Positions 5,682 through 29,340 of a DNA stretch of 64,000 nt are shown one piece after another. How positions within the stretch are numbered: position 1 is the first letter of the stretch; the number at the start of each line of letters is the position of its first letter. A model generated the notes under the pieces. It had not been told where the DNA came from. It saw only the letters and a program-made list of their open reading frames with translations, and did no database searches. The DNA comes from Candidatus Omnitrophota bacterium. Lineage in GTDB: Bacteria; Omnitrophota; Omnitrophia; Omnitrophales; Aquincolibacteriaceae. The stretch is from positions 109,955 through 173,954 of the forward strand of contig CAISGE010000002.1 of NCBI GenBank assembly GCA_903884815.1, written 5' to 3'. Position numbers and translations under genes: made by a program.

Positions 5682-7373
5682 TCAAGCGGGCATTCCGAGG
5701 TAGAATCCCTGGCCGTATTTTACGCCAAGCTCCTTAAGTTTGTCGAGGTCTTCTAAGGTCTCGATGCCTTCGGCTATCACTTCGGCGTTGAGGTCTGCCG
5801 CGATCTTGAGGGTGCGGCGCAGAGAACGTTCAATGTGAAGGTCCTGGGCGATCCCGCGTATGTATTTTTTATCCAGCTTGATCACGTCGGGCTCCAGCAA
5901 AATGAGACTTTCCAGACAGGTGTTCCCGAACCCCACGTCATCGACGGCGATCGAAATGCCATAACGTTTGAGCTCCTCGACAGGGCCGATCAGATGCGAG
6001 GGCTCACCGAGGATTTGCTGCTCGCTGATCTCAAGGCAGTAGCTTTGGGCCGGGCAATTCGTCACGAGTTTCTGGACAAGGTCCTCCACCGCAAGGTCAA
6101 TGATCGTGGCCGGAAAAAGGTTGATGTGCCGGTGCATGGCGGGAGGTAGAGAGGCCGAAGCCGAGACGCAGGAGCGGAAACAGTGATGATCGACCAAGGT
6201 CAGCATGTTGTTTTCCATTGCGAGCCGGAAAAATTCGTCGGGGGTGTGAACGCCGCTATTTTGAAGGCGCGAAAGGAATTCGTAGCCGATGATCGACAGG
6301 TTGTCCAGACGAAGGATCGGCTGTTTCACCGCGAAGAAATCCGTCCCCCGTCGCATGAGTTCGGTCATATGCCCCGCGTCGGCCCCCAGGATCAGCTCTT
6401 CCGCTTCGCCGGGCGTTTGATACGAAATTCGGTTTTTCCCTTCCTTCTTGCTTTGTCTCAGAAAGGGGTCGGAAATGGCCAGAAGATCATCGACGGAGGT
6501 CACGTGAGACGGCACGGAAGAAAGTCCAAAGCTGGCCGTGATGCGGAGGGACTCTTTGTCTGAAATGACGATGGTGGTGTTCGAAATCGCGAACCGGAGA
6601 CGCTCGGCTAGCTGAAGTCCTTCCTTCAGCGGTGTTTTCGGCAGAAGCAGGATGAACTCATCGCCGCCGATCCGCGCTACGTGATCGGAGATGCGCACCG
6701 AATCCCGGATCTTTTTCGCGGTCTCCTTCAGGAGAAGATCGCCGACGGGATGGCCCAGCGTATCATTGATCCGTTTCAAGTCGTCGATATCCAAAATAAG
6801 GACCATTAATCTTCCGCCCTCGCGGGTCAGGACCTGGGTTTCGCGGCGGAGGACTTGCTGGAGGCCGCGGCGGTTGTAAAGTTCGGTCAGGGGATCAAGA
6901 AGCGCCATTTTTTCAAGACGCAGATTGCTTTCGCGAAGGCGTCCGGTGACTGAAGCGAGCTTCTCTTTGATCCGGTGGCGGTCGATCGCGTGATGCAAAA
7001 TGCGGAGCAGGAGCCTCGAATTGATCTCGCCTTTGATCAGGTAGTCTTCCGCCCCTTTGCGGACAGCGTCGATCGCGAGGGTGTCGCTGTCCAGGCCGCT
7101 CATGATCACGATGGGAGTATGGCGCGCCTGGGCCCGGAGAGAAACAAAGGTCTGGATGCCGGAGGAGTCGGGGAGCATCAGGTCGAGCAGGATCAGGTCC
7201 CAGCCCGTTTCGGCGATGGCTTCCAGGGCTTGCCGCAGAGTGGGAACCCATGTGATATCGAGTGGGGGATTTGCCTCTTTGCTGAGGCGGATCTTCATGA
7301 TCTCCGCGAAATCCTGCTCGTCTTCGACGAGGAGTACCTTCCATCCGGGTTGCGTGAACTTTTCCTGGTCCAT
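5682..7373 (-). CDS. Response regulator with REC, GGDEF and EAL domains (c-di-GMP turnover).
   Basis: N-terminal REC (KVLLVEDEQDFAEIM...LILLDLMLPD). GGDEF motif (RIGGDEFILLL). EAL-type motifs (EFLSRL, DDVGFGNTCLESL). RBS AAGGGAG upstream. Its stop lies 20 nt from the kinase start, or overlaps it if the kinase uses the TTG start. Confidence 0.8.
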   Translation of the reverse strand: MDQEKFTQPGWKVLLVEDEQDFAEIMKIRLSKEANPPLDITWVPTLRQALEAIAETGWDLILLDLMLPDSSGIQTFVSLRAQARHTPIVIMSGLDSDTLAIDAVRKGAEDYLIKGEINSRLLLRILHHAIDRHRIKEKLASVTGRLRESNLRLEKMALLDPLTELYNRRGLQQVLRRETQVLTREGGRLMVLILDIDDLKRINDTLGHPVGDLLLKETAKKIRDSVRISDHVARIGGDEFILLLPKTPLKEGLQLAERLRFAISNTTIVISDKESLRITASFGLSSVPSHVTSVDDLLAISDPFLRQSKKEGKNRISYQTPGEAEELILGADAGHMTELMRRGTDFFAVKQPILRLDNLSIIGYEFLSRLQNSGVHTPDEFFRLAMENNMLTLVDHHCFRSCVSASASLPPAMHRHINLFPATIIDLAVEDLVQKLVTNCPAQSYCLEISEQQILGEPSHLIGPVEELKRYGISIAVDDVGFGNTCLESLILLEPDVIKLDKKYIRGIAQDLHIERSLRRTLKIAADLNAEVIAEGIETLEDLDKLKELGVKYGQGFYLGMPA

Positions 7374-7432: not shown

Positions 7433-7828
7433 CTAAACATCGGGAAGGATTTTCTTGATCGCGTCAAAGAGATCGCTGAATTCATACGGCTTTGTCAAAT
7501 AAGCGTCGGCCCCGATGACCTTGCCCAGGATCTTATCGACAATGGAATCTTTCCCCGTCAACATAATGATGGGAATTTTCACCAGGTTTTCATCAAAACT
7601 TTCCCGGAGCGCTTTGCAGACTTCCTCGCCGGGGAGTTTGGGGATCATGAGATCAAGAATGATAAGGTCGGGGAGGGTTTCCGTGGCTTCTTTAAGACCG
7701 GTCATGCCGTCAAAGGCTGCTGAGACCGAGTAGCCTAGATTTTTCAGGCGCATGGTCAAAAACTTGCTGGCGCTGTATTCGTCTTCAATGATGAGGATTC
7801 TTTTTTTTGTAACGGATTTTTTTTCCAT
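7433..7828 (-). CDS. Single-domain CheY-like response regulator receiver protein.
   Basis: KKRILIIEDE...DLIILDLMIPKLPGEEV...IIMLTGK REC signature. The six-frame ORF extends to 7900, but no RBS precedes that start. The ATG at 7828 (MEKKSV) follows an A-rich AAAGAG motif. Confidence 0.7.
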   Translation of the reverse strand: MEKKSVTKKRILIIEDEYSASKFLTMRLKNLGYSVSAAFDGMTGLKEATETLPDLIILDLMIPKLPGEEVCKALRESFDENLVKIPIIMLTGKDSIVDKILGKVIGADAYLTKPYEFSDLFDAIKKILPDV

Positions 7829-8199
7829 GGGGCTCTTTTTTTCTGCAGGCAAATTAAATTTAGGGGTGGTGGTCTCTGACGCCATATCAACGATCCTCAT
7901 TTGGAATCAACAGGCCGCGCGAAACCGCAGCGGATCTTTTTCGCGAAAACGTTTCTTTTGAAACGGAACTTTCTTTAACTCGAAAGGAAGTATATCTGGC
8001 GAATGTGGAAAAAGCAAATCACGGGGATCTGAAAAGGGGCTAATTGCTATGGAAAACTCTAAAGAGAGATATCTTGTTTCATCCGTGAGGGCATTGCCAA
8101 TTCGTGCCACAACTTTTTTCTATAAATATGTGGCAAGGATTCTCTGGTTCGCCCTCTTACGAGGGAAGTCCTCTCGCCAAACGACAAGCCAAAATAGTT

Positions 8200-8466
8200 C
8201 TATGTCTTGCCGTTGAAGTCATCCACGGTGCGTTCCAAATCCTGGACCCGGTCGGATAAGGCGCTGACCGTTTCCGTCAGCTCCGCGATGCTCTGCTCCA
8301 TTTCATCCATTCTGTCGCTCCGCAGGGTTTTCTGAAGGTCCGCGACTTCCTGGGGAGTTCCGCTCATTCCGGTTTCTGCCGAATCATTTTCTGCGGCCGG
8401 CGCGACCGGAAGCGCGAACGAAAGAAGTCCTATTCCCAAAATTAAAACAGCCGTGATTTTTTTCAT
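8200..8466 (-). CDS. Small secreted protein with a signal peptide and a coiled-coil region; hypothetical.
   Basis: MKKITAVLILGIGLLSFALPVAPAAE signal peptide. RBS GAGGTGG sits 5 nt upstream of the ATG at 8466, and a TATACT -10-like hexamer lies further upstream. Confidence 0.45.
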   Translation of the reverse strand: MKKITAVLILGIGLLSFALPVAPAAENDSAETGMSGTPQEVADLQKTLRSDRMDEMEQSIAELTETVSALSDRVQDLERTVDDFNGKT

Positions 8467-8724
8467 CGAAGCCACCTCGAACGGGAGTATACCCTATCTT
8501 TGCAGAAAAGCAAAACATGGGAGGTTGTTTGATTTTTCGTCACAAAAATAGAAAGGGCCCACGGAACCCTCCAGGAAGCCTAAGCTTAGGCCTCCTGCAG
8601 AAAAAAAATCTTTACGGTTGTCTTTAGAGCGGGATTGTATGATACTTCCTCAGCAAAAAGGCCGTGAGCCCGGTCCGGAAGTCCGGATGTGAGGACGCGG
8701 TGTAAACCAAAAGGAGAAAGCATC

Positions 8725-9009
8725 ATGGCGAAGGCGAAAGCAAAAACGAAGGCAAAAGGAAAAGCAAACTCAGCGTTCATGAAACCGATGAAGATCAGCG
8801 AGAAACTCGCACCGGTGGTCGGCAAAGGTCCGATGCCCCGCAGCGAAGTCGTCAAGAAGCTCTGGGCCTACATCAAGAAGAATAAGCTCCAGGACACCAA
8901 GAACAAGCGCAACATCAATGCGGATGAGTCGCTCAAGGCCGTGTTCGCAGGCAAGAAGGTCGTCAATATGTTCGAGATGACCAAGCTCGTCAGCAAGCAT
9001 CTCTCTTAA
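8725..9009 (+). CDS. SWIB/MDM2 domain protein.
   Basis: Lysine-rich N-terminus followed by LAPVVGKGPMPRSEVVKKLWAYIKKNKLQDTKNKRNINADESLKAVFAGKKVVNMFEMTKLVSKHL, the canonical bacterial SWIB domain. RBS AAGGAGAAAG precedes the ATG at 8725. Confidence 0.7.
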   Translation: MAKAKAKTKAKGKANSAFMKPMKISEKLAPVVGKGPMPRSEVVKKLWAYIKKNKLQDTKNKRNINADESLKAVFAGKKVVNMFEMTKLVSKHLS

Positions 9010-9028
9010 GAAGCCCCTTTTTTCATTG

Positions 9029-9060
9029 CTCTATCCGCCGTCGTAAGGGGGCGGATAGAG
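9029..9060 (+). terminator. Perfect 11-bp GC-rich hairpin (CTCTATCCGCC-gtcgtaagg-GGCGGATAGAG) directly downstream of the SWIB gene. Putative terminator with no clear U-tract.
   Basis: Inverted repeat read from the sequence, 20 nt after the stop codon. Confidence 0.3.
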
Positions 9061-9329
9061 TCCGTGAAAATCCGGATTGAAAGGGATGGCCCTTCGCGGG
9101 CCATCCCGTTCTCCGAGGATCCTCTGCAAACGAAAACCCATTCCCTCTAACTTAGTAATTTCAGTGTTCGCATTCTGTTAATGTCAGGACCTTCCCCTCG
9201 GCGTTTCGGAAGAACCCTTATCTGAGGCGTGATCCGAAGTCCTCAAGCCGCTCCTTTCCACCGCCGTTCAAGTTTTTGCACCCATGCCATAAAGGGCGAC
9301 TTGGACGGCCCCAAGCCTTAAAGACATGT

Positions 9330-9357
9330 TATAGTTTCTATAGGTAGATGCCGAATC
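9330..9357 (+). promoter_or_regulatory. Weak sigma-28 (FliA)-like promoter candidate upstream of the pilin cluster: TATAGTTT-N12-GCCGAATC, versus the consensus TAAAGTTT-N11-GCCGATAA.
   Basis: Motif read from the sequence about 40 nt upstream of the first pilin ATG. The spacer is 1 nt longer than the consensus. Confidence 0.2.
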
Positions 9358-9397
9358 AATAGGCAACATAATCTTTTCACCTGAATGGGGGAAGGCC

Positions 9398-9862
9398 ATG
9401 AAAAACATGAGAAAAGGTTTCACGCTTGTAGAAGTACTGATTGTCGTTGTCATCATCGCTATTCTCGCCTCGCTTATTGTGCCGCGTATGCTCATGCAGA
9501 CCGAAAAGGCCAAAGCCGCCGAAGCTCTCCAGATGATAGGTGCTATCAAACGCGCTGCGGATAGGTACTACGATTTCCATGGAACTTATATTACCCCCAC
9601 TTACGAAATTTATGCGGACCCTGCAGGAGCTGCATCCGCAGAGGGTGATTGGGCGGATCTCGGCCTTGACGACAGCAATATCAGAAAAACAAAGTACTGG
9701 GCTTATAATTATTCTCCCGGGAATAACATCCTCGACGTGCAGACGCCCGATGGGGTAAAATTCGCAACTTACAATATGCAAACGGAGCTGTGGAGTTGCG
9801 ACGGGATTTTTTTTAAAGAGCTTAAAAATGCCGGTGGCAATGTGACCGGCCGCACGATTTAA
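9398..9862 (+). CDS. Type IV pilin or pseudopilin (prepilin-type N-terminal cleavage/methylation domain protein), paralog 1.
   Basis: Class III signal MKNMRKG|FTLVEVLIVVVIIAILASLIVPRM with Glu at +5. C-terminal Cys pair (WSCDG...). RBS GGGGGAAGG. Confidence 0.8.
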   Translation: MKNMRKGFTLVEVLIVVVIIAILASLIVPRMLMQTEKAKAAEALQMIGAIKRAADRYYDFHGTYITPTYEIYADPAGAASAEGDWADLGLDDSNIRKTKYWAYNYSPGNNILDVQTPDGVKFATYNMQTELWSCDGIFFKELKNAGGNVTGRTI

Positions 9863-9928
9863 AAGCAGAATAGAGTAGGTGGTGTGTTGAAAGGGAGCGC
9901 GGCCTATTTCACGCGGGAAAACAGGGTC

Positions 9929-10438
9929 ATGGAAAACACGAAAAAAGGATTTACGCTTGTTGAAGTGCTGATCGTTGTCGTCATTATTGCCATCCTCGCT
10001 TCGCTCATCGTGCCTCGCATGCTCATGCAGACCGAGAAAGCCAAAGCTGCCGAAGCCTTTCAGATGATGGGGGCCATCAAACGAGCAGCGGAAAGATATT
10101 ACGACTTTGCGGGAAGTTATAATGTTCCTTTTCAGGGAAGTATGATTTTTACGAGACCTGACGGGGGTGCGAATATTGGCGATTGGTCCGAACTTGGCCT
10201 CACAGGTATAGAGAAATCAAAGAATTGGTATTACATTTACCAAGGGACGGGCGCCAGTTACGCCATCATTGCCTATGATGACATAGCTTCCGAAAAACGC
10301 AAGGCGGAGATCCATTACGAGGGCTATGAAGATATCAATGAGGTAAGCTTTTGGGTTTGCGCAGGTACTTTTAAACCGATAGAACCTCCCGCGCCGGGAC
10401 ATGGTATGGAGACATCTGTGAAGGGCTGCACGATTTAA
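9929..10438 (+). CDS. Type IV pilin or pseudopilin, paralog 2.
   Basis: MENTKKG|FTLVEVLIVVVIIAILASLIVPRMLMQTEKAKAAEAFQMMGAIKRA, the same N-terminus as paralog 1. C-terminal Cys pair (WVCAG...KGCTI). The six-frame ORF begins further upstream at 9884. Confidence 0.75.
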   Translation: MENTKKGFTLVEVLIVVVIIAILASLIVPRMLMQTEKAKAAEAFQMMGAIKRAAERYYDFAGSYNVPFQGSMIFTRPDGGANIGDWSELGLTGIEKSKNWYYIYQGTGASYAIIAYDDIASEKRKAEIHYEGYEDINEVSFWVCAGTFKPIEPPAPGHGMETSVKGCTI

Positions 10439-10480
10439 AGATTAAGAAGGGAAACGGGTAGCGGCGAACGGGGAAAGCAT

Positions 10481-10942
10481 ATGAAAAATAGAAAAAAAGG
10501 ATTTACGCTTGTTGAAGTGCTGATCGTTGTCGTCATTATTGCCATCCTTGCATCGCTCATCGTGCCGCGTATGCTGATGCAGACCGAAAAAGCCAAAGCT
10601 GCCGAAGCCCTCCAGATGGTGGGTGCTATGAAAAGGGCCCTCGAGAGATACGTCGATATGTCTGCGACTCGTCCGCAGCTAGATCTGAATTCGGGCCACA
10701 GTTATGGGAATATAGAGACAACTGGCCATTGGTCAGATCTTGGGCTTCCACTCATGGACAAATCGCAATTCTGGAATTATTTTGCCTATGCGGATGACAC
10801 TATGTGGCAAGTCTCTGTTTATGACGCTGCGAGCGACTCAAAATACATAGTTTTCACCGAATACTACGGTCCACCTATTTCAGATATTTGGGGCTGCGAT
10901 GGGGTCCTTTTTAAGTCCGTGAATGGCGTTTGCACGGTTTAA
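10481..10942 (+). CDS. Type IV pilin or pseudopilin, paralog 3.
   Basis: MKNRKKG|FTLVEVLIVVVIIAILASLIVPRMLMQTEKAKAAEALQMVGAMKRA. The 5' 130 nt are nearly identical to paralog 2 at the DNA level. C-terminal Cys pair (WGCDG...GVCTV). Confidence 0.8.
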   Translation: MKNRKKGFTLVEVLIVVVIIAILASLIVPRMLMQTEKAKAAEALQMVGAMKRALERYVDMSATRPQLDLNSGHSYGNIETTGHWSDLGLPLMDKSQFWNYFAYADDTMWQVSVYDAASDSKYIVFTEYYGPPISDIWGCDGVLFKSVNGVCTV

Positions 10943-11021
10943 AAAGGGAATAGTCCGCTGCCTGAAAACCACCGTGTTTTCCGCTAGAATCCTACTGATT
11001 CTGAAACTCGCCCATGGATTT

Positions 11022-11066
11022 TATTCACACCACTGTCTGTCTAACGAACGATGCTGGATTGCCTCA
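11022..11066 (-). repeat. Pseudo-copy of the comM 3' end. The minus strand encodes EAIQHRSLDRQWCE-stop, versus the true comM terminus EAIQYRSLDRQWYG-stop. Att-like direct repeat bounding the ORF6N insertion.
   Basis: A direct repeat of roughly 45 nt at about 75% identity, sharing the 15-nt core ACCACTGTCTGTCTA, with comM 11621-11665. The stop codon is preserved at the equivalent position. Confidence 0.55.
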
Positions 11067-11070
11067 TGCG

Positions 11071-11592
11071 TTATGTCTGAAACCCAATCGGACCTTTGGG
11101 TTTTTTCGAAGTGGAAGCCGGTGGTTCGAGGAGTTCTTTGATGGCCTTGAATACAATCTGAAACTGATGGTCGTATTTTCTCTCCATCGCCTCGATTTTC
11201 TGTCGCAGCTCCTTGTTCCCCGCTAGCATTTCCCGTAATTGGGTAAATGTCCGCATTATCTGGATGTTGACTTGAATTGCTCGTTTGCTGTTAAGAACGC
11301 TGGAAAGCATTAGGATGCCATGCTCTGTGAACGCAAAAGGAGGCTTGCGTGTTCCTCCCCAACTTGTTCCGCCAAAATGGCGGGTCAAGTTTGTAAGCTC
11401 TTCTCTTGTAAGGACTAAGAGAAAGTCATCCGGAAAGCGTTCTGTGTTTCTGCGCACCTGGCGCTTGAGATGCTCGGTTTCGACTCCATAAAGTTCTGCC
11501 AAGCCTCTGTCGAACATGACCTTTTTTCCCCGAAGCAGGAAAATCTTGCTCTGAATTACTTCTTGCGGGACGAGAGCCTTTGATCCTGCCAT
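11071..11592 (-). CDS. ORF6N-domain protein (phage/Bro-N-like DNA-binding family).
   Basis: IFLLRGKKVMFDRGLAELYGVETEHLKRQVRRNTERFPDDFLLVLTREEL matches the ORF6N signature. Start at 11592 (MAGSK) with AAAGGA upstream. The six-frame ORF extends to 11628, overlapping the comM end. Confidence 0.7.
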   Translation of the reverse strand: MAGSKALVPQEVIQSKIFLLRGKKVMFDRGLAELYGVETEHLKRQVRRNTERFPDDFLLVLTREELTNLTRHFGGTSWGGTRKPPFAFTEHGILMLSSVLNSKRAIQVNIQIMRTFTQLREMLAGNKELRQKIEAMERKYDHQFQIVFKAIKELLEPPASTSKKPKGPIGFQT

Positions 11593-11620
11593 GGGTTTGT
11601 TTTCCTTTCTGATGTCACGG

Positions 11621-13138
11621 TTATCCATACCACTGTCTGTCTAGGCTGCGATATTGAATTGCCTCAGCAATATGCTCGCTTTGAATTTGTTCGCACCCCG
11701 CCAGATCACCGATTGTTCGGGCGATTTTGAGAATCTTATAATAAGCCCTCGCCGATAAATGGAGTTCCTTCATCGCCATTTCGATAAGCTTGCGGCCCTG
11801 CATGTCCGGCGTTGCGAATTCCTTGATGTCCCTGGGATTCATCTGGGAATTAGTTTTATAGGACCTCATGCGGTAGCGTGACCTTTGGATCGTTCGGCAC
11901 GCGCAAACTCTCTCCCGTATCACTGACGAACTTTCCGACGGTTCTTGACTCGTCAGCGTCTGGAACGATAAGGCCGGCACTTCAATATGAATATCGATCC
12001 TGTCGAGCACCGGCCCCGAGATCTTAGACTGATATTTATGGATTGCCCCTAGCGAGCACCGGCAGGTCTTGCGTGTATCGCCGAGATAACCACACGGACA
12101 GGGATTCATCGCCGCGACTAATAAAAAATGGGCAGGGAAGGTGATCTGGTTCTTGGCTCTCGAGATCGTGATGTAGCCGTCCTCCAAGGGACCGCGCAAG
12201 GTTTCCAGTGCGTCGCGACGGAATTCCGGAAGTTCATCCAGGAAAAGGACGCCGCCGTGGGAAAGTGACATTTCTCCGGGGCGGGGAGAGGTGCCGCCTC
12301 CGGCGAGAGCAATGGCGGACGCGGTGTAATGGGGCGAGCGGAAGGGGCGCTCGGCGATTAGTCCGCTTCCTTGAGGGATCGACCCCGCCACACTGTGGAT
12401 CTTGGTGATCTCCAGGGCCTCCTCGGTTGTCATGGGAGGGAGGAGGGTCGGGATTCGCTTGGCGAGCATCGTCTTTCCGCTTCCGGGAGGGCCGATGAAA
12501 AGGATCTTGTGATCTCCCGAGACGGCAATCTCCAGGGCGCGCTTAGCGGCCTGCTGGCCGCGCACCTCGGAGAAATCAAGAAGATGGGAGGACGGGTTCA
12601 TGTTCTTATAGGGAATATTCCGGAGAGGCTCGACGCTGCGCTCTCCGGTCAGAAATTCTACGGTTTCACGGAGATTCTTGACGGGATAGACGGAGACGTC
12701 TTTGGCTAATGCCGCTTCCCCCCCGTTTTCGGCTGGGAGGACAAACGAGGATTCCCGAAAGCCCGAAGTGATGGCAATAACGCCTTTCAGAGGGCGCAAG
12801 GCCCCGTCGAGGGCCAGTTCTCCGATAAAGATATGTTTTGCCAGCTTTTCAGGGGGGATGATCCCGTGGCAGGCCAGAATTCCCAAGGCGATAGGGAAGT
12901 CAAAAGAAGCGCCTTCCTTCTTGATGTCCGCTGGGGCGAGACTGATGGTGATCTTATCCGGCGGGATATGGAAACCGCTATTTTTGAGGGCGGTGCGAAC
13001 CCTTTCCCGGGCCTCCTTGATGCTGGTGTCGGCGAGGCCCACCAGGATTAGCTGGGGAAGCCCGTCGCTGATATCGACCTCGATATCCACCGGAAAGGCG
13101 TGGATGCCAATGGCGAAGGCGCTTTTGATGCGTATCAT
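11621..13138 (-). CDS. comM: YifB/ComM family Mg-chelatase-like AAA+ ATPase (competence protein ComM).
   Basis: MIRIKSAFAIGIHAFPVDIEVDISDGLPQLILVGL... ChlI-like N-terminus, a Walker A (GPPGSGKT), an AAA+ core and a C-terminal Mg-chelatase subunit ChlI domain. The ATG at 13138 matches the family N-terminus. Confidence 0.85.
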   Translation of the reverse strand: MIRIKSAFAIGIHAFPVDIEVDISDGLPQLILVGLADTSIKEARERVRTALKNSGFHIPPDKITISLAPADIKKEGASFDFPIALGILACHGIIPPEKLAKHIFIGELALDGALRPLKGVIAITSGFRESSFVLPAENGGEAALAKDVSVYPVKNLRETVEFLTGERSVEPLRNIPYKNMNPSSHLLDFSEVRGQQAAKRALEIAVSGDHKILFIGPPGSGKTMLAKRIPTLLPPMTTEEALEITKIHSVAGSIPQGSGLIAERPFRSPHYTASAIALAGGGTSPRPGEMSLSHGGVLFLDELPEFRRDALETLRGPLEDGYITISRAKNQITFPAHFLLVAAMNPCPCGYLGDTRKTCRCSLGAIHKYQSKISGPVLDRIDIHIEVPALSFQTLTSQEPSESSSVIRERVCACRTIQRSRYRMRSYKTNSQMNPRDIKEFATPDMQGRKLIEMAMKELHLSARAYYKILKIARTIGDLAGCEQIQSEHIAEAIQYRSLDRQWYG

Positions 13139-13316: not shown

Positions 13317-13781
13317 ATGATCGATGTCTTGAATCCTCCATTTCATAGTGAAAGAGCCTACGCCGCCGTCTTATTGAGCTGGTTCGTCGCCCAGGCTCTT
13401 AAGGTGATACTGGGAGGAGCGAGTCACAAAAAATTTGACGTCCGTTGGCTTTTTGACACGGGCGGGATGCCCAGCGCGCACTCCGCGACCGTGGCTAGTC
13501 TCGCCACTGTGGTGGGGCTCTATTATGGCTTCAACAGCATTCCTGCCTTGATGGGATTGATCATTTGCCTTATCACGATGTTCGATGCCGCAGGCGTCCG
13601 CCGGCATTTGGGCACGCAGGGGAAGATCCTCAATGAGATCGTCGACGAGTTTTACGCGAAGGGCGCGGTCCCGGAGAAGCGTCTCAAGGAACTTTTGGGA
13701 CACACGCCTGTCGAAGTGATCGCCGGCGCGGCTTTAGGAATTTTCATGGCCTATCTTTTTTGTGCATGGACCGTCTCATGA
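13317..13781 (+). CDS. Divergent PAP2 (acid phosphatase/vanadium haloperoxidase-related, YuiD-like) membrane protein.
   Basis: GGMPSAHSATVASLATVVG and MFDAAGVRRHLGTQGKILNEIV motifs typical of DUF212/divergent PAP2. Confidence 0.6.
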   Translation: MIDVLNPPFHSERAYAAVLLSWFVAQALKVILGGASHKKFDVRWLFDTGGMPSAHSATVASLATVVGLYYGFNSIPALMGLIICLITMFDAAGVRRHLGTQGKILNEIVDEFYAKGAVPEKRLKELLGHTPVEVIAGAALGIFMAYLFCAWTVS

Positions 13782-15917: not shown

Positions 15918-16127
15918 TTAGGCGGCTCCCCAGAGCTGTTTTTTCAAGTTCATCAATCTCTCGAACAATTTCTTTTCCTGCACAACTTCCCGCAGAGTGT
16001 TTTCAGGAATATCCAGCAAGGCTACCTCGCTAACGCGATCAATGTGTTCGGGGAAGCGGTGCGCGAGCTCATAGGTGGGGATGCCCTGCCTGTATTTCAG
16101 ATCGAATAATTTTTCATAGAGTGTCAT
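15918..16127 (-). CDS. Small hypothetical protein (69 aa).
   Basis: Strong RBS GGGAGGT 6 nt upstream of the ATG. No recognisable domain. Confidence 0.4.
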   Translation of the reverse strand: MTLYEKLFDLKYRQGIPTYELAHRFPEHIDRVSEVALLDIPENTLREVVQEKKLFERLMNLKKQLWGAA

Positions 16128-16292
16128 TTTTTACCTCCCGAGTATGTGTATCACTTCGGCATCTTTTGCTGAATCTATCGACTTTGTTGAAGATTTCCTA
16201 AAAAATTAATTATTTTATATCTATATATAGCGTTACTATCCAAAAATGAGCACAATTACTTGTGGAACATTAAAATACCTTCACTTTTTGCG

Positions 16293-22565: not shown

Positions 22566-23099
22566 ATGAAATGTCCTCGCACAGGCGCCAACATGAAAGA
22601 AGTCGAGATCAACAAGGTTAAGGTGGATATTTCCGAGGGATGTGGCGGCGTCTGGTTCGACAATCTGGAATTTGAAAAATTCGATGAGGCTCATGAAAAC
22701 GCGGGCGACAAACTGGTTGATTTGATGGCGTCTTTCGCGAAGGGGAAGGGACCGGTCGACCTGGACAAACGGATCAACTGCCCCCGTTGTGCGGACACGG
22801 TGCTGATGCGGCATTTTGAAAGTCCCCTCCGGAAGATCCAGATCGATCAATGTCCGGGATGCGGCGGGATCTGGTTGGATGCCGGGGAGCTGAAGGATTT
22901 CCGGAAGCTTTTTCCGACGGAAGCGGACCGGAAAAAAGCCGGCGACGAATTTATCGCGAAGTCCATCATGCCCATCCTTGAGGCCAAAGCCAAAGAGGGC
23001 CAGGAAGAGCTCGAAAAGGCCCGGCGTGTTGCCCACATGTTCCGCTTCATTTGTCCGAGTTATTACATCCCCGGGAAACAAGCAGGCGCCGCTTTTTAA
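22566..23099 (+). CDS. Double zinc-ribbon (zf-TFIIB-like) protein; hypothetical.
   Basis: Two CPxC...C..CGG(V/I)W(F/L)D modules (CPRTGANM...CGGVWFD and CPRCADTV...CPGCGGIWLD). RBS AAAGGAGA. Confidence 0.55.
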   Translation: MKCPRTGANMKEVEINKVKVDISEGCGGVWFDNLEFEKFDEAHENAGDKLVDLMASFAKGKGPVDLDKRINCPRCADTVLMRHFESPLRKIQIDQCPGCGGIWLDAGELKDFRKLFPTEADRKKAGDEFIAKSIMPILEAKAKEGQEELEKARRVAHMFRFICPSYYIPGKQAGAAF

Positions 23100-23155
23100 A
23101 AACAGCTGGGGGCCTGCGGATGACGGCTCCCTTTTCCTTTGATGGACGAGGGGAA

Positions 23156-23746
23156 ATGCAAAGAAAAACAATAGCGTTCCTTTTTCTCGCCCTCCTGCTT
23201 TATCCCGCCACACTGCTTTTCTCCGAATCACCCCTGACTGTCACCCGCGTGATCGACAGTGATACCCTGGAACTTTCGAGCGGCGAAACCGTGCGCCTGA
23301 TCGGGATCGATTGTGATGAGCAGGAATACAGTCCAGCAGACGCGGCGTATCTTAACCGTGGCAAGAAGTGGGAACGCGGCCCAGATTCACTAAAACACGC
23401 CAAGGAAGCGGCGGAGTTCACTCGCAAGCTGGTGGAAGGCAAGAAGGTCAGACTAGATTACGATGTCCAGCGGAGGGATAAATACGGGCGATTGTTAGCC
23501 TATGTTTATGTCTTGGTATGCAACAACTGCGATGTTCTTAGGGCGGCAGAATATGAATATCTGGATATGATAGATCCGGACGAAAGCAATGCTGTTTGTA
23601 TCTTTCTTAATGCAACCCTCATCAAGGCTGGCTACGCCCAAGTCGTGACCGTCCCGCCGAGTGTGAAGTACGCTGACCTGTTCGTGAAGCTGGAGAAGGA
23701 AGCCAGGGGGAGGAAAAGGGGGTTGCGAAGTGAGGGTAAAATTTGA
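23156..23746 (+). CDS. Secreted thermonuclease (staphylococcal nuclease, SNase)-like protein, copy 1.
   Basis: Signal peptide. SNase motifs RVIDSDTLEL, TVRLIGIDCDE and DKYGRLLAYVYV. The C-terminal tail is conserved with the other copies (KAGYAQ...VKY..LFVKLEKEAR). Confidence 0.75.
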   Translation: MQRKTIAFLFLALLLYPATLLFSESPLTVTRVIDSDTLELSSGETVRLIGIDCDEQEYSPADAAYLNRGKKWERGPDSLKHAKEAAEFTRKLVEGKKVRLDYDVQRRDKYGRLLAYVYVLVCNNCDVLRAAEYEYLDMIDPDESNAVCIFLNATLIKAGYAQVVTVPPSVKYADLFVKLEKEARGRKRGLRSEGKI

Positions 23747-24861
23747 GCGAAGAACATATGCGGAAATACAAGTATGACAACTTCGGCAATGATCTTGCTT
23801 CTGAGCTCGGGCAGAAAGTTCGATGCACCCGATGTTTGGGGCCGTCCAGCATCAGGAAACAGGATGGCGGCGCCGTGAATAAAGAGCTTCCGTATGACAT
23901 GTATATACATTGGCAGTTATTAAGGGAGTGTAATTTTTCATGTGAATATTGTTATTCTTCCCCGCAGACCGGCCCGGCAAAAAAAGCGGATGTTGCGCGG
24001 ATAGTTCACCGGTTAGATGCTTTTGGGAAGACATCTCTTATTTCATTTACAGGAGGGGAACCTTTTCTTGTTCCGAATTTTATCGAGCTGGTGAAGGAAT
24101 TAACAAAAAGACATTATGTTCGCATCGATACGAATCTCAGCCTTTTAGCAGCTTGCGAGAGCTTTATCAAGGAGGTTGATCCGGAAAGGATTTGCGAGAT
24201 AGTTTTTTCGATTCATGCCGGAGAAAGGGAGAAACGCAAGATGCCGCTGCGGGACTTGTGCGCTCTTGTAAGAAAGTTCCGAGATCGCGGATTTATCATG
24301 ACGGGAAATTATGTCGTCTACCCCACGCTGTTGAAGAGGTTCTCGGATGACATGAAAATATTTCGAGAGAATGCGGTCAGTGTTTTGCCTAGTTTGTTTG
24401 TCGGAAGACAGGGCGGTAAAAATTATCCAATGCATGCCGGCAGGTTAGCTTACGAGCAAAACGCCTTTGATTTGATCTCAGGGATAAATCCAAAGGTAAA
24501 TCTCGTTTTAAACAGGAGCGTCGGCGAATTGTGCCCGGCGGGGGTAAATTCATTTTTTGTTAATTCCGATTATAAGGTTTTTGCCTGTGCGGCTATCCGG
24601 AGGGAAATAGGCGACTTTTGGGGGGATTGGAAGATGTTTCCCAAGGTCGTGCGGTGTCCGATGGAGTATTGTTACTGCCCATTTAATAAACCTTTTGTGG
24701 TGGGTCAGAGGACTCAAATACAGACTTCATTGCTGAAAGACGCTCTCCATCGGAACGGCGAGGCATCCGTTTGGCAATCTAGATTCTTAACAAGGGATAT
24801 GCGGAGAGGGGTAAAAAGGTTTGTCGAGCGCCTTGTTGAAAAGTTCTCGCTGCGTGAATAG
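23743..24861 (+). CDS. Radical SAM enzyme with a C-terminal SPASM/twitch-like Cys cluster, copy 1.
   Basis: CNFSCEYC is a CxxxCxxC radical SAM motif. The C-terminus carries CPAG...C...CPMEYCYCP. The track start is a TTG at 23743 overlapping the SNase stop, and an alternative ATG lies at 23758. Confidence 0.75.
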   Translation: MSEEHMRKYKYDNFGNDLASELGQKVRCTRCLGPSSIRKQDGGAVNKELPYDMYIHWQLLRECNFSCEYCYSSPQTGPAKKADVARIVHRLDAFGKTSLISFTGGEPFLVPNFIELVKELTKRHYVRIDTNLSLLAACESFIKEVDPERICEIVFSIHAGEREKRKMPLRDLCALVRKFRDRGFIMTGNYVVYPTLLKRFSDDMKIFRENAVSVLPSLFVGRQGGKNYPMHAGRLAYEQNAFDLISGINPKVNLVLNRSVGELCPAGVNSFFVNSDYKVFACAAIRREIGDFWGDWKMFPKVVRCPMEYCYCPFNKPFVVGQRTQIQTSLLKDALHRNGEASVWQSRFLTRDMRRGVKRFVERLVEKFSLRE

Positions 24862-24910
24862 GCTTTAAATTGCAGAAGGAAGCACGGGAACAGAAAAGGG
24901 GGATTTGGAA

Positions 24911-25384
24911 ATGAAGAAGTACTTGTTCGCGATCGCGGCATTGTGCCTGGCGGCCACCACCATTGCGGCGGAGAGTCGCGCATCAAACGGATCAACAGAG
25001 ACCCTTAAGAAGGTTAGATCGGTTCTGCCTCAAGGCTGGTTCATTGTCAAAGTTGTGAAAGGGCCGTCTTCTCCGAACCATTACGCGGAGGATGCACAAG
25101 AGGCTGTTGTTGTTTTGATCAGCAATCCATCAATCGATGCGAAAATGAAAAGTAAAGCCAAGATCGGGCCGTACGAGCTCTATCTGATGGACCTTCGCTA
25201 TAAAGAGAAAAGCCATACAGTCTCAGCTCTGCATCCGGAGGTCGCGGAACGGCCTGCGCGATACCTCGGCAGAAGTGAGCATTTTAAAATTTATTGGGGT
25301 GGGGGTATGTGGGGACTCGATCCTGTTGAAAAGAAACTTGAGGCTGACGTCAAACAAGCGTTGAGCATTGCTACGGAAAAGTGA
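24911..25384 (+). CDS. Secreted hypothetical protein.
   Basis: Signal MKKYLFAIAALCLAATTIAAESRA. Preceded by the recurring junction element at 24878-24914. Confidence 0.5.
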   Translation: MKKYLFAIAALCLAATTIAAESRASNGSTETLKKVRSVLPQGWFIVKVVKGPSSPNHYAEDAQEAVVVLISNPSIDAKMKSKAKIGPYELYLMDLRYKEKSHTVSALHPEVAERPARYLGRSEHFKIYWGGGMWGLDPVEKKLEADVKQALSIATEK

Positions 25385-25396
25385 GGAGTCGTTAAA

Positions 25397-26356
25397 ATGA
25401 GGAAGCTATTATTCGTGATCACGGCGCTGTGCCTAGCGGCCTCGGCGGGGTATGGGGAGGAATCTTCCGGGAATTTCCCGTTCAGCAAGATCGAGAGGAG
25501 GGGCGGCGTGGTCCGCCTGCAACTTCCTGACCATGGATTCCGGTGGCTCATAGGTGTAAATACGGAAAACCGCGCGAAGCTCAGAAGGTCGAACTATTCG
25601 GAGGTCGTGGAGTTGAAGACCCGCGGGATCTTGGGTGGGGACAAGCTTTATATGATTGAAAAGCATCAACAGATCGTCATCGAACCTATTTTTCAGGGCA
25701 AAGCCCTTTTTTTAAAGCAAACCGTTAAAACGGATTTGCGTAGCATGGGCGGCTCCGTAAAGATTGAAAAATCCTTTATTCCCGTGCCGGACGAGGGAAA
25801 GCAGCTGCAAGCGAGCCTGGCGCCGGAGGGTTCTTTGGTTGTGAAACGCGTGATCGACGGTGATACCCTGGAACTTTCGAGCGGCGAAACTGTGCGTCTG
25901 ATCGGAATCGATTGTGAGGAAAACGAGTACAGTCCTGCCGAGGCGGTCTATCTTAACCAAGGAAAAAAATGGAAGCGCGCGCCGGGATCTCTGATGCACG
26001 CTAAGGCGTCGGCAGATTTCGCCCGCAAGCTGGTCGAGGGCAAGCAGGTTCGGTTGGAGTACGACGTTCAGAAGAAGGATAAGTCCGGCAGGACGCTGGC
26101 GTATGTTTATCTATTGCCAAGGCAGGCAGAGAATCATGACAAGACCGTTCTTGAATTCGGACGTTTTTTGGATGATGGTTATGGCGGGCCGGGAAAATCG
26201 AGCCTCGTCTTTATCAACGCCACCCTCATCAAGGCTGGCTACGCCCAAGGCATGACCTCCTCCAAGGATGCCATCCCGCCGAATGTGAAGTATCAGGAGT
26301 TGTTTGTGAAGCTGGAGCAGGAAGCCAGAGAAAATAAAAGGGGGTTGTGGAAATGA
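25397..26356 (+). CDS. Secreted SNase-like nuclease with an N-terminal extra domain, copy 2.
   Basis: Signal MRKLLFVITALCLAASAGYG. The C-terminal SNase domain (RVIDGDTLELSSGETVRLIGIDCEENEY...) is nearly identical at the DNA level to copy 1 (25852-25940 versus 23260-23345). Ends ...EARENKRGLWK*. Confidence 0.75.
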   Translation: MRKLLFVITALCLAASAGYGEESSGNFPFSKIERRGGVVRLQLPDHGFRWLIGVNTENRAKLRRSNYSEVVELKTRGILGGDKLYMIEKHQQIVIEPIFQGKALFLKQTVKTDLRSMGGSVKIEKSFIPVPDEGKQLQASLAPEGSLVVKRVIDGDTLELSSGETVRLIGIDCEENEYSPAEAVYLNQGKKWKRAPGSLMHAKASADFARKLVEGKQVRLEYDVQKKDKSGRTLAYVYLLPRQAENHDKTVLEFGRFLDDGYGGPGKSSLVFINATLIKAGYAQGMTSSKDAIPPNVKYQELFVKLEQEARENKRGLWK

Positions 26357-26691
26357 AAAAACAGAAAAATCAGAACGTGGTAACACCAAGCAACGTCCTT
26401 TCTTCTTACGACCCAGTTAAAGTTGCCTTGGCAGAAGGAAATATATACGGAGCAGGCGCTTCGGGGAGATTCAAGAAGAGTTGGGTGACAAGGCTGGGTT
26501 TTATTCTTCTGGCGCTACCGTTTCTTGGCTACGCTATCTTTATGTTTCCTATGATTTATAAGAGCTTGTCTGAAGCCATCAACGTCAAAACAACTGAGGT
26601 TACACTGGCGGTCGGCATTGGAGGCATGCTTCTCGACTTATCCTGCCTTTGGCTGGGACTTAAATTAATCGCAGGTGCGTTAAAGAAATAA
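26353..26691 (+). CDS. Small two-TM membrane protein; hypothetical.
   Basis: An ATGA overlap with the SNase-2 stop, inside the junction element. The hydrophobic helices suggest a membrane protein. Confidence 0.5.
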   Translation: MKKQKNQNVVTPSNVLSSYDPVKVALAEGNIYGAGASGRFKKSWVTRLGFILLALPFLGYAIFMFPMIYKSLSEAINVKTTEVTLAVGIGGMLLDLSCLWLGLKLIAGALKK

Positions 26692-26703
26692 TAGGAGGGG
26701 GTT

Positions 26704-27153
26704 GTGGAAAAGAAAAGGTCAATAGGTGTAATGGTCATTTCTATAGTTAATTTGCTGGTAGGTTTGCCCGTGCTTTTTTTATGCCTCCGTTTTTTCATTT
26801 CAAATTATGAAAAGTTCATATCGCAGCTAGGTGATTTGTCTTTTTTCAGCGTTTTCGTTTTTATACTCTATGTTCTTATGGCGCTAACAGCTGTTTGTTT
26901 CCCCGTCCTATTTAGTTATGCGGGAATTTCAACTTATAATCTCAAGCCTGGTTCCGTAGCCCTCAATAAGGCTATCGCTAAATGGACGATTGTTTTCGTG
27001 GGGGGAGGCGAAGTTATTTTTGCGGTTACGCTTGCACCGCATCTAATGATTAGAATGGAATTCAGCCTTCTTGTGACGCTTGCCGCCGTGCTGTATTTTA
27101 TGTGGGTGCAAATGTATTTCACGCATCCCAAAGTTAAGGAGCAGTTCAAGTAA
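26704..27153 (+). CDS. Four-TM membrane protein, paralog family A (C-terminus ...P.VK.QFK).
   Basis: GTG start after GGGGGTTGTGGAAAAG. The C-terminal THPKVKEQFK is shared with the 30507 and 34426 genes. Confidence 0.5.
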   Translation: MEKKRSIGVMVISIVNLLVGLPVLFLCLRFFISNYEKFISQLGDLSFFSVFVFILYVLMALTAVCFPVLFSYAGISTYNLKPGSVALNKAIAKWTIVFVGGGEVIFAVTLAPHLMIRMEFSLLVTLAAVLYFMWVQMYFTHPKVKEQFK

Positions 27154-27214
27154 GGACCCCGAACCGCAAGGGGCCGCGGCAGGGAGCGCGGGAACAGAAA
27201 AGGAGGTTGTGGAG

Positions 27215-27496
27215 ATGAAAAGGATATTTGTAATAATATTAACATTAAGTATCTTGCTTGGAATTTCTGACGTTGCGTTTGCGAAGCACCATCATTCTAA
27301 AAAAGCAGAGGCCCCGAATAACAAAGAGGATCAAGGGAGGAAGGTGACGTGCCTCGTCAAGGGCGTCCCGCAAATGGTGAGGACAGAAGGCGTTTGTAAG
27401 GATTTTAACGGCACCGTGGTGCCCGAAAAAACTCCTCCAGGAGCAACGGCGGTGCCGGAGAAAAAAATAACGGCGCAAAAAATAGAAAGCAAATAG
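27215..27496 (+). CDS. Small secreted protein (93 aa) with a His-rich segment and 2 Cys; hypothetical.
   Basis: Signal MKRIFVIILTLSILLGISDVAFA. Preceded by the junction element GGGAACAGAAAAGGAGGTTGTGGAGATG. Confidence 0.45.
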   Translation: MKRIFVIILTLSILLGISDVAFAKHHHSKKAEAPNNKEDQGRKVTCLVKGVPQMVRTEGVCKDFNGTVVPEKTPPGATAVPEKKITAQKIESK

Positions 27497-27537
27497 ATCC
27501 CTCGTTATGAATTGAAAATGATCAGAAAGGCAACTCT

Positions 27538-27741
27538 ATGACACGCATAATCTTTTTGGCAGCACTGGTTTTGACCTTCAGCGGTTGTTGCACTTCTCAG
27601 TCGGCGGCGGACTTGCAAATCAGCCAGGACGAGGCGAAGCTGACACGGATGTACCGCGAGTGCATTGAGAAGAATCTTGGCCATGGGGAAGCCATGAGGA
27701 AGGATTGCGAGCCGATCCTTGGCCCCTATGTAAGTCATTAG
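27538..27741 (+). CDS. Small lipoprotein (67 aa) ending ...KDCEPILGPYVSH.
   Basis: Lipobox LTFSGC. The 3' end is repeated at 29254-29310. Confidence 0.4.
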   Translation: MTRIIFLAALVLTFSGCCTSQSAADLQISQDEAKLTRMYRECIEKNLGHGEAMRKDCEPILGPYVSH

Positions 27742-27838
27742 AGGCGGGGGCGACGAAGGCGTTTAACCGGTTGGAGGGTGATGTTGAGTTCGGGGAGATG
27801 ATGGAGGATTAAAAGAGTAAGAAAAAAAGGAGGGTTCT

Positions 27839-28006
27839 ATGAACGGAAGTGATATGACAATGATCGTAACGTATATCGTCGGGAGTCTCCTTGTTTTTCT
27901 CGTTTGCAGAGAAATCGTGTGCTGGTATTTTAAAATGAATGAAGTCACGAAGTTGCTTCGGGAGATCAAGGAATGTTTGAAAAGCCATCCCTCCCTTAAG
28001 TCTTGA
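27839..28006 (+). CDS. 55-aa single-TM peptide (MNGSDMTMIVTYIVGSLLVFLVCREIVCWYFKMNEVTKLLREIKECLKSHPSLKS); hypothetical.
   Basis: A strong RBS AAAAAGGAGGG 7 nt upstream. Below the 60-aa cutoff of the ORF track. Confidence 0.35.
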   Translation: MNGSDMTMIVTYIVGSLLVFLVCREIVCWYFKMNEVTKLLREIKECLKSHPSLKS

Positions 28007-28090
28007 TGGGGGGGGGGAAGAGGCTGCTTCGGGATGCGGGCGTGCATCGTAGTTTATTAAAATGATGAGGCAGCTAAAGGAGAAGGCAAA

Positions 28091-28708: not shown

Positions 28709-28791
28709 AACATGAGATGAAAACGGGCGTTTATCAAGAGGATGCGGCGGATTAAAGGAAGAAATAACAGGAGCCGTTGGGGAAGGACATA

Positions 28792-28920
28792 ATGCGCTAT
28801 GCCATTGGCCTGATAAGTAAGTTGGATGGTCCCACGATAATGTTTCTGGGCATTTTCTCCCTTACTATCATTGTCATTTGCATGGTTGGGATATCTTTTC
28901 CAAAGAAGCGGGGAAAATAG
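28792..28920 (+). CDS. 42-aa hydrophobic peptide; hypothetical.
   Basis: RBS GGGGAAGGA upstream. A single TM. Very short, so the confidence is low. Confidence 0.2.
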   Translation: MRYAIGLISKLDGPTIMFLGIFSLTIIVICMVGISFPKKRGK

Positions 28921-28950
28921 GAGAGGGAGAACCTACGAAGGAGAGGATAT

Positions 28951-29253: not shown

Positions 29254-29340
29254 GAGGACAAGGATTGCGAGCCGGTCCTTGGCCCGTAGGGAAGTCATGA
29301 GAGGCAGAGTCGGGGAGCCGTAGAACCAAGCGAGGGGCGT

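Follow-up and report, generated by a model that had tools for sequence, protein, structure and literature searches.

Insertion of foreign DNA at a conserved gene is known from several bacterial systems, against which we compare here the 3′ end of comM in a 64,000-nucleotide (nt) stretch of DNA (the window, at its full length) from the uncultured phylum Omnitrophota. In E. coli, e14 and phage 21 integrate in the 3′ end of icd; they encode their own tyrosine integrase, measure 15–40 kb and carry 165 nt of icd. In staphylococci, SCCmec and pseudo-SCC elements (SCC, staphylococcal cassette chromosome) form tandem cassettes at rlmH (orfX), flanked by direct repeats with the last codons of that gene, and pseudo-SCC depends on CcrAB supplied in trans. 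Cis-mobilizable elements (CIMEs) lie beside ICESt1 and ICESt3, two integrative and conjugative elements (ICEs) at the 3′ end of fda in Streptococcus thermophilus; they are thought to derive from ICEs and adjoin one. Integron cassettes terminate in attC, a structured site with the core GTTRRRY, and enter at attI beside intI. The AbaR islands (Tn6019/Tn6022 family) in comM of Acinetobacter baumannii are Tn7-like, carry their own transposition genes and generate a 5-bp target duplication. In the window, an intact comM is followed by a single gene with an ORF6N domain and then by a second, degenerate copy of the comM end. We find a hot spot for insertion in the last codons of comM in this Omnitrophota lineage. 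Incoming DNA carries its own comM-like 3′ end, which replaces the resident end, and comM stays complete. The resident end is displaced downstream of the insert and decays there, and repeats of this process stack cassettes in front of a response-regulator operon.

As with e14 and phage 21 at icd, the replacement 3′ end differs mostly by synonymous changes, the target gene is intact and a displaced pseudo-end lies at the far junction; unlike them, the comM unit comprises 600 bp and one gene, has no recombinase and occurs in several stacked layers. With SCC and pseudo-SCC it shares tandem accretion at the end of one conserved gene, members without a recombinase and adaptive cargo (resistance or defence). 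SCC, however, has a defined integration site of ~15 nt and Ccr serine recombinases in part of the array; at comM no recombinase was found in nine islands, a limited sample, and the 10–15 exact nt shared by the two copies within each of four loci differ in sequence between loci. CIMEs resemble the comM locus in their att-type repeats derived from a gene 3′ end, their lack of integration and transfer genes and their accretion, but no ICE or integrase-bearing partner was present at the comM loci examined. Small, often single-gene and promoter-poor units, lying in one orientation at one site with the recombinase outside the cassette, also recall integron cassettes and the arrays of attC sites lacking an integron integrase (CALIN arrays); an integron or attC reading was nevertheless rejected, as the borders are comM coding sequence, nothing is attC-like and there is no intI. 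AbaR islands share the target gene, whence the reputation of comM as an island hot spot, yet they interrupt it, whereas here the gene remains whole and the duplication covers tens to hundreds of bases from its end. That ComM is intact at every step distinguishes this case from AbaR islands, which disrupt the gene, and suggests either that a functional comM is selected for or that there is mechanistic coupling to it. Compared with integrase-encoding integrative elements, direct repeats with an intact target gene and empty sites are present, while an internal recombinase is absent. The comM-end array follows a known style of gene capture, yet it is no member of the integrative island, SCC or integron families. 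We know of no earlier description of ORF6N in this arrangement, and a literature search found no paper linking ORF6N to comM.

A repeat search of the window identified a direct repeat of 46 nt at 11021–11066 and 11621–11666 (36/46 identical, 78%), with a start-to-start spacing of 600 nt and 554 nt in between. The proximal copy, termed tail A, is the present comM end; the distal copy, termed tail B, begins 4 nt past the ORF6N stop codon. Both read in frame on the minus strand and carry a TAA stop at the same position. They share an exact 15-nt core (ACCACTGTCTGTCTA) that occurs at these two places only in the 64 kb, even with two mismatches allowed, where shuffled sequences gave an expectation of 0.04 matches. 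Using the last 60 residues of ComM as a tblastn query over the window, we recovered only the true end and tail B (E = 6.5e-4; next match 0.39). Chance similarity is ruled out by the number of cores expected, by the preserved frame and stop and by the same layout in many relatives. An Rfam search of 10900–11800 returned no family at E ≤ 1. The sequence-only reading of this DNA had described a duplicated comM terminus around a lone ORF6N gene with no integrase; the repeat is real, its coordinates were right to within 1–2 nt and the similarity exceeds chance on alignment. ORF6N is indeed the only gene between the copies by Pfam, and none of the window open reading frames (ORFs) scanned encodes an integrase.

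The differences between the two tails bear on their origin. Of 10 differing nucleotides, 7 are synonymous; counted by codon, there are five synonymous changes (accounting for the 7 nt and including AGC to TCG for serine) and three non-synonymous ones. This synonymous excess indicates that the tails diverged as coding sequence in different comM lineages, and not after a local duplication. On our reading of the sequences, tail B resembles tail A less than it does the intact comM ends of L003 and L007 (L numbers denote loci on relatives' contigs), which would fit tail B as the older end and tail A as the imported one.

To place the repeat in context, contigs of relatives were examined whose ComM homologues are 72–88% identical to that of the window. 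Three Omnitrophota lineages (L176/L177, L178/L179 and L192; ComM 86–87% identical) have empty sites, in which comM is followed by 176–232 nt and then by genes for a response regulator, a GGDEF/EAL protein and a PAS histidine kinase (L176, L178 and L192). Neither ORF6N nor a comM tail remnant is present at these loci. A ComM tree places the empty-site lineages within occupied ones, L176, for example, being nearest to L003. The same native sequence can be traced in the window, where positions 8086–7901 are 73.8% identical to the L178 empty site over 172 aligned nt, through to the regulator start, and positions 8086–8079 hold the last 8 nt of the original comM end (ACGGATGA). All of 8087–11620 is therefore inserted relative to the empty site. 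Besides the ORF6N gene and tail B, this DNA includes the three pilin-like genes, the SWIB gene and a small ORF, and the response-regulator operon lies 3.5 kb from comM. The window consists of two layers, an older pilin/SWIB block of ~2.9 kb and a newer 600-bp cassette of spacer, ORF6N and tail B (Table 1). A third, still older comM remnant at ~8087–8208, hinted at by MAFFT, was discarded, as local alignment scores were no better than those of shuffles; only ACGGATGA is kept.

These comparisons support the view that the 46-nt distal copy is the former comM end, displaced when foreign DNA entered the end of that gene. The sequence-only reading had taken it for such and had proposed looking in relatives for empty sites or larger islands. 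Both were found: comM runs into the response-regulator operon in three lineages, and larger islands occupy the site in others. The pilin cluster does adjoin the element, as that reading had noted, but it is not native DNA; since 8087–11620 is inserted, the pilins belong to the older layer.

Eight further lineages carry different insertions at the same place at the comM end, each followed by a displaced comM end and often stacked (Table 1), in agreement with the suggestion that comM is a recurrent insertion point in this clade. Three remnants are stacked in L003 and two or three in L174 and L193, compared with two layers in the window; across loci, the remnants measure 14–15, 25–28, 33, 37–42, 47, 53 or 171 codons. 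As a control, we inspected comM loci of other phyla (~50% identical), and among the 80 matches listed none had a tail remnant or an adjacent ORF6N. Gain or loss at the comM end has taken place among close relatives. Among the cargo are genes for pilins, arsenic resistance and cell-surface enzymes as well as a candidate phage-defence gene, and the locus represents, in an uncultured phylum, a delimited site that gains and loses adaptive genes in layers with no recombinase in the cargo.

Table 1 Features of the comM locus in the window and gene order downstream of comM in relatives
Feature or locus	Position	Strand	Evidence or content
comM, YifB-family Mg-chelatase-like AAA ATPase, intact, 505 amino acids (aa)	11621–13138	−	Pfam ChlI, Mg_chelatase, Mg_chelatase_C
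Tail A, present comM 3′ end, proximal copy	11621–11666	−	Encodes EAIQYRSLDRQWYG, then stop
15-nt identical stretch, codons L-D-R-Q-W, likely crossover region	11629–11643		Second copy 11029–11043
28-nt spacer with ribosome-binding site CCGTGACATCAGAAAGGAAAACAAACCC, comM stop to ORF6N start; left end of cassette	11593–11620	−	
ORF6N-domain gene, 173 aa, sole gene between repeat copies	11071–11592	−	Pfam PF10543, 2e-28
Palindrome inside ORF6N, family-wide covarying hairpin	11363–11389		Minus strand CTTGACCCGCCA-TTT-TGGCGGAACAAG, coding LTRHFGGTS
Tail B, displaced former comM 3′ end, distal copy	11021–11066	−	Encodes EAIQHRSLDRQWCE, then stop
Older inserted block, not in empty-site relatives	8087–11020		Pfam N_methyl and SWIB; comparison with L176–L179 and L192
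Three type-IV-pilin-like genes	9398–9862, 9884–10438, 10481–10942	+	Pfam N_methyl
SWIB-domain gene	8689–9009	+	Pfam SWIB
91-aa ORF	8200–8475	−	
Last 8 nt of original comM end and native comM-to-response-regulator intergenic region	7901–8086	−	Outer border of all inserted DNA
Response-regulator gene, first native gene downstream of comM	7433–7900	−	
GGDEF/EAL gene after response regulator	5682–7373		Followed by PAS histidine kinase
L003, after comM			ORF6N, 27-codon remnant, 213-aa gene, 38-codon remnant, second ORF6N, decayed 27-codon remnant
L007, after comM			ORF6N, 101-aa ORF, 53-codon remnant
37-kb contig, after comM			ORF6N, histidine kinase, 50-aa Mg_chelatase_C fragment
L096, after comM			ORF6N, 33-codon remnant
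L171, after comM			Spermine-synthase, TPR and glycosyltransferase genes, 171-codon remnant; without ORF6N
L172, after comM			ORF6N, 28-codon remnant, IS200-like gene
L174, after comM			4.5-kb arsenic-resistance island, 38-codon remnant, ORF6N, further remnant
L193, after comM			PTPS and Fur genes, 37-codon remnant, ORF6N, 15-codon remnant

The replacement of the comM end can be followed in L174, where comM is chimeric (10001–11518). The intact gene ends in a foreign tail (TVADLDNSETIRPEH…QWWA) that is ~77% identical to other tails over the last 53 residues, and the clade-typical tail (16064–16177; 95% identical to the window's) lies behind the 4.5-kb arsenic island, whose genes encode ArsC-like, Acr3/SBF, ArsP, thioredoxin, DsbD_2 and DUF134 proteins. 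A foreign tail on the intact comM, together with a native-type tail behind the island, indicates that incoming DNA brings a new comM end. The DLDNSE signature of the intact L174 tail recurs in the L003 remnants behind ORF6N, where the nucleotides GGACAATAG also hold the ORF6N stop codon. The L003 remnants therefore descend from a comM lineage other than the resident one.

The ORF6N gene and the comM remnant trailing it recur as a discrete unit of ~600 bp, found in the window, L003 (twice), L126, L172 and L193. The right junction, consisting of the ORF6N stop, 4 nt and (A)EAI…, is at the same nucleotide position in the window and L193; a similarly short remnant lies behind ORF6N in L126, and longer versions are present in L003 and L172. 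The ORF6N genes of L126 and L193 are only 62–70% identical to the window's. A comparison of L135 with L150 delimits the unit on both sides. Identity is 60.6% over the last 128 nt of comM and rises, with sharp borders, to 91.6% over the ~600 nt that start a few bases past the comM stop and reach to the ORF6N stop; beyond that stop the DNA is unrelated (36%). ComM and ORF6N trees are incongruent, with the two L003 copies of ORF6N on different branches and the L174 copy grouping with that of L126. The ORF6N genes of L091–L093 group with the window's clade (73–81% identical), their ComM C-terminal parts being ~54% identical (142–177 residues available). We read these comparisons as showing horizontal transfer of some ORF6N cassettes.

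We propose that the stack of cassettes at the comM end was built by a recombinase acting in trans, an account that we hold with moderate confidence. Crossover would take place within the D-R-Q-W codons, that is, in the 15-nt identical core, and the part of tail A beyond it would be supplied by the incoming cassette. The reaction would be a conservative, site-directed recombination catalysed by an enzyme encoded elsewhere, as is the case for SCC-like cassettes lacking an integrase and for CIMEs. In the window, L003 (first pair), L172 and L126, the longest exact run shared by tail and remnant (10–15 nt) falls at the D-R-Q-W codons, 5–20 nt before the stop, and the nucleotide sequence of these runs differs between loci. 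A recombinase in trans is favoured because the L135/L150 borders are sharp, the flanks are too diverged for homologous recombination and junction positions recur. In this genome the ORF6N cassette would no longer be mobile; it is probably immobile now because its repeat copies are only 78% identical.

Several observations weigh against this account. No recombinase was identified anywhere, and the enzymatic step is one that we infer. No nucleotide core is common to all loci beyond amino-acid conservation, and the remnants range over 14–171 codons, which requires a process driven by homology or else several families of elements; families that each bring a comM stretch of different length could also account for this range. 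In L135 and L150 there is no visible cassette-borne comM-like arm past the ORF6N stop, which does not fit a simple attP model. Relative to L003, L007 and L172, the comM and ORF6N genes of the window also show roughly the same nucleotide divergence. The window cassette may thus be old and vertically inherited since its insertion, with the empty sites representing secondary, precise losses. Of the site-specific integration proposed by the sequence-only reading, the att-like duplication at comM stood, while integrase as the agent is left a supposition by nine islands lacking a recombinase, the missing shared core and the spread of remnant lengths. The presence of occupied and empty sites at one locus makes the insertion mechanism directly testable.

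The search for a recombinase covered both the window and its relatives. Of the window's 49 ORFs with 110 aa or more, ~40 were scanned by Pfam and gave no integrase, transposase or recombinase family, and a crude scan with motif regular expressions and tblastn (queries, a Bacteroides integrase and an IS200-like TnpA) gave nothing convincing. Between comM and the outermost remnant, no integrase or recombinase family was present in nine islands (the window and eight others, a limited sample). No ICE or integrase-bearing element was located at the comM end in the ~12 lineages examined, again a limited sample, and a check of further ComM relatives for an integrase-bearing island added one more empty site (L192) and one more integrase-less island (L193).

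Separately, a gene for an IS200/IS605-type Y1 transposase was observed directly behind the ORF6N remnant in one relative (L172 12407–12709; L173 6498–6974). Near the comM-end arrays no other mobility gene was seen.

Insertion might instead be driven by homology, with no dedicated recombinase. DNA of a relative, acquired for example by natural transformation, would be recombined by RecA, either through a double crossover (comM body and an older comM remnant) or through a Campbell-type single crossover of a circularised, tail-bearing fragment; direct tail repeats would also permit precise loss. We regard this route as possible but doubtful. It accommodates remnants of 14 to 171 codons and the lack of a universal nucleotide core, as well as the nine islands without a recombinase. 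Scar-free empty sites are the expected product of tail–tail recombination, and comM and ORF6N are similarly diverged among close relatives. The locus also encodes ComM and type-IV-pilin-like proteins, which in other bacteria are components of the competence machinery. The difficulty lies at the borders of the cassette. In L135 and L150 the cassette is 92% identical against 61% for the comM ends, the downstream DNA is unrelated and homologous recombination would lack a substrate at either border. Moreover, the right junction sits at the same nucleotide position in the window, L126 and L193, although the ORF6N lineages of the latter two are 62–70% identical to the window's, and the first duplication of each kind would still require a non-homologous event.

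A quite improbable explanation dispenses with foreign DNA. ORF6N would be an ancestral partner of comM, and the second tail would have arisen by local tandem duplication or slippage and then decayed. The presence of ORF6N beside the comM end across ComM identities of 52–88% is consistent with such a partnership, as is the similar nucleotide divergence of comM and ORF6N among the window's close relatives. Empty sites are, however, nested within occupied lineages, and the same site holds islands without ORF6N (L171). A decaying pseudo-copy would not be expected to show synonymous changes in 7 of 10 differences, including a three-nucleotide serine switch, and the L003 remnants bear the DLDNSE of a different comM lineage. 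The incongruent trees and the sharp-bordered cassette of L135/L150 likewise argue against an ancestral pairing.

It is highly improbable that the element is what remains of a larger island or prophage that bore an integrase and later lost this module by deletion. Integrases that aim at gene 3′ ends and supply a replacement end are common, and contigs of other lineages in IMG/VR carry terminal C-terminal fragments of comM. The minimal unit of spacer, ORF6N and remnant nevertheless stands alone in many lineages, and nine integrase-less islands would need nine independent deletions of the same module. The suggestion of the sequence-only reading that ORF6N is cargo left from a deleted island is accordingly unlikely, as ORF6N and its comM remnant recur as a ~600-bp unit with sharp borders in L135/L150. 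Its expected link to prophages also proved weak. Viral relatives of ORF6N amounted to one distant match in IMG/VR (43% identity), the only one in its viral contigs, and five unannotated gut 'Bacteriophage sp.' records (at most 44%), which lend no support to a prophage origin of the window's ORF6N clade. A chance similarity or a template/variable repeat pair of a diversity-generating retroelement, which the shortness of the repeat (46 nt) and its place at a gene 3′ end, where variable repeats sit, might bring to mind, has a negligible probability given 0.04 cores expected per window, the retained frame and stop and the layout in many relatives; the retroelement pair was rejected, the substitutions being of all kinds and not adenine-specific, with no reverse transcriptase in the Pfam-scanned window ORFs.

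The IMG/VR contigs (L180–L185) were also considered in their own right. In these other lineages, C-terminal comM fragments of 130–300 residues lie near the contig end, and in L183 and L184 the fragment is 2.8 kb upstream of the full comM start. This arrangement suggests the existence of prophages that insert within comM and bring along a substitute for part of it.

A conserved segment of ~95 nt, termed Z, was noticed at some of the comM remnants. The segment is joined to comM at codon ~469, where the 37–47-codon remnants have their left edge and cargo islands their right end (L003 6311–6436, L094 1197–1448, L174 15971–16216, L092 12–160 and L193 ~12790–12880; proteins P0241–P0252). The reverse strand encodes KYPNKDLLYTTYEYPEFVPVVTIKWDELAGI and is called as an ORF of 52–65 aa, the first ~20 codons of which are antisense to the comM remnant; it is divergent to the ORF6N gene that follows the remnant. 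Its substitution pattern resembles purifying selection. A protein search for its origin matched only the same small ORFs.

The match of the ORF6N protein to PF10543 scores 98.9 bits (cutoff, 27.8 bits). The protein also matches the PADLOC candidate single-gene defence system PDC-S05 (1.4e-54, 182.5 bits; positions 4–171 of the 177-position profile) and an anti-repressor of PHROG (6e-26). It comprises an N-terminal DNA-binding-type domain and a helical C-terminal part, with a conserved C-terminal IGF motif. An AlphaFold2 (AF2) model, with a moderate pLDDT of 72 overall and 85–90 for residues 10–125, shows a small alpha/beta DNA-binding-type domain followed by long helices. Its best matches in the PDB are weak winged-helix-like domains (E ≥ 0.3), and no enzymatic or catalytic fold emerged from the PDB comparison; nothing in the predicted structure suggests that the ORF6N protein itself acts as a recombinase. 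The protein has thousands of relatives, of which the named ones are from Omnitrophota, and the identical protein is encoded on many contigs, all with the window's arrangement. Metagenomes that contain the window's species include ERZ27313102 and ERZ18624736.

From its domain and profile matches, the ORF6N protein is predicted to bind DNA and is a candidate anti-phage gene product. In one preprint, a representative of PDC-S05, described with a RhuM domain, reduced the plating of T7 and T5 ~1000-fold (10.1101/2024.09.26.614923); this tested representative may belong to another branch of PDC-S05 than the window ORF6N. Candidates of this kind were discovered as genes 'embedded' in other defence systems, PDC-S05 itself not being named (10.1101/2024.01.29.577857). 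In Treponema, an ORF6N homologue lies between the methylase and specificity genes (hsdM and hsdS) of a type I restriction system. The comM end offers a concrete example of how a single-gene defence candidate travels, a question general to 'embedded' defence genes.

The ORF6N gene contains a palindrome in its middle (Table 1), which we analysed in 101 distinct ORF6N genes from the fetched loci. It is always centred on the same codons, with a median helix of 14 bp, a stem of 11–17 bp and a loop of 1 or 3 nt. A palindrome score attained by 96% of the real genes was attained by only 3.7% of versions with randomised synonymous codons. Watson–Crick pairing was found at 90% of positions, compared with 21–33% when the partner was slid, and nearly all of the 13 positions display three or four pair types, as expected of covariation. 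Mismatches are more often A:C (26) than G:T (12), hinting that it is the antisense strand that may fold. Homologues from Bacteroidota, Campylobacterota, Legionella, Treponema and Butyrivibrio, as well as one on a viral contig, share the palindrome, and at least five bacterial phyla are represented; further examples are at L066 (~13560–13600), L092 and L186–L190. The peptide it encodes is the sole low-confidence loop of the ORF6N model. Rfam has no family for this palindrome, and a literature search found no mention of a palindrome in ORF6N or KilA-N genes. It represents a constraint at the nucleic-acid level strong enough to shape the protein sequence and, if functional, changes the reading of a widespread family.

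A rather unlikely extension is that ORF6N (PDC-S05) genes are very small mobile cassettes without a recombinase and that the conserved, covarying mid-gene palindrome is their cis-acting site. This might be, for instance, a hairpin in single-stranded DNA or a cruciform that an enzyme of the host or a helper recognises. If true, this would explain why ORF6N abuts the exact end of another gene and is accompanied by a duplicate of part of that neighbour. Such positions are the 3′ end of comM, the DNA behind a C-terminal fragment of an integrase in Bacteroides, the junction of hsdM and hsdS in Treponema and the tandem arrays with a repeated boundary motif in other Omnitrophota. It would also amount to a new kind of mobile element and a mechanism for the 'embedding' of defence genes.

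ORF6N genes occur away from comM as well. Distant members (at most 65% identity) were seen in L117 (1–4841), L168 (10000–14430), L145 and L123. They form tandem arrays in which DUF1016-like and AlbA_2-like genes are interspersed; in L117, 4.8 kb contain five copies. A motif of 35–56 nt (…TGAAAAATGAATAAATTAACCGAAAGCAGAAC…) lies behind every gene of these arrays and also opens a 478-aa gene in L117; it may be a further repeat at cassette boundaries. On the Bacteroides ovatus plasmid NZ_CP081918.1 (L186, 1121–3564), a C-terminal integrase fragment of 191 aa lies behind a full integrase gene and 12 nt ahead of an ORF6N gene, after which come ArdA and a JAB-domain gene. The fragment is 37% identical to the C-terminal half of the full integrase, and the layout, a C-terminal fragment of the neighbouring gene type with ORF6N, is the same as at comM.

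The spacers between comM and ORF6N measure 15–100 nt in relatives, and some contain short palindromes. Perfect examples are GGTCGCAATTTGCGACC in L135, which is similar to the mid-gene ORF6N palindrome, and GTGACTGTCAC, which occurs twice in L193 (loci, L135 9903–10000, L143, L150 and L193 12990–13020). They may be operators.

The ComM protein of the window scores 591 bits against TIGR00368 (YifB; cutoff, 362 bits), identifying it as a full-length member of the ComM/YifB family, and the identical protein (P0121) is present on 16 contigs. In the older layer, the pilin-like genes (9398–10942) are tandem paralogues, the second and third of which share a 98-nt 5′ coding stretch that is 83% identical (10001–10098 and 10553–10650). 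Elsewhere in the window, 22566–30393 holds three staphylococcal-nuclease-domain genes, a DUF1016_N–SNase fusion, a radical-SAM protein and a zinc-ribbon protein, a cluster that could represent an island for defence or of nucleases. Positions 49350–59435 are taken up by one ORF of 3361 aa.

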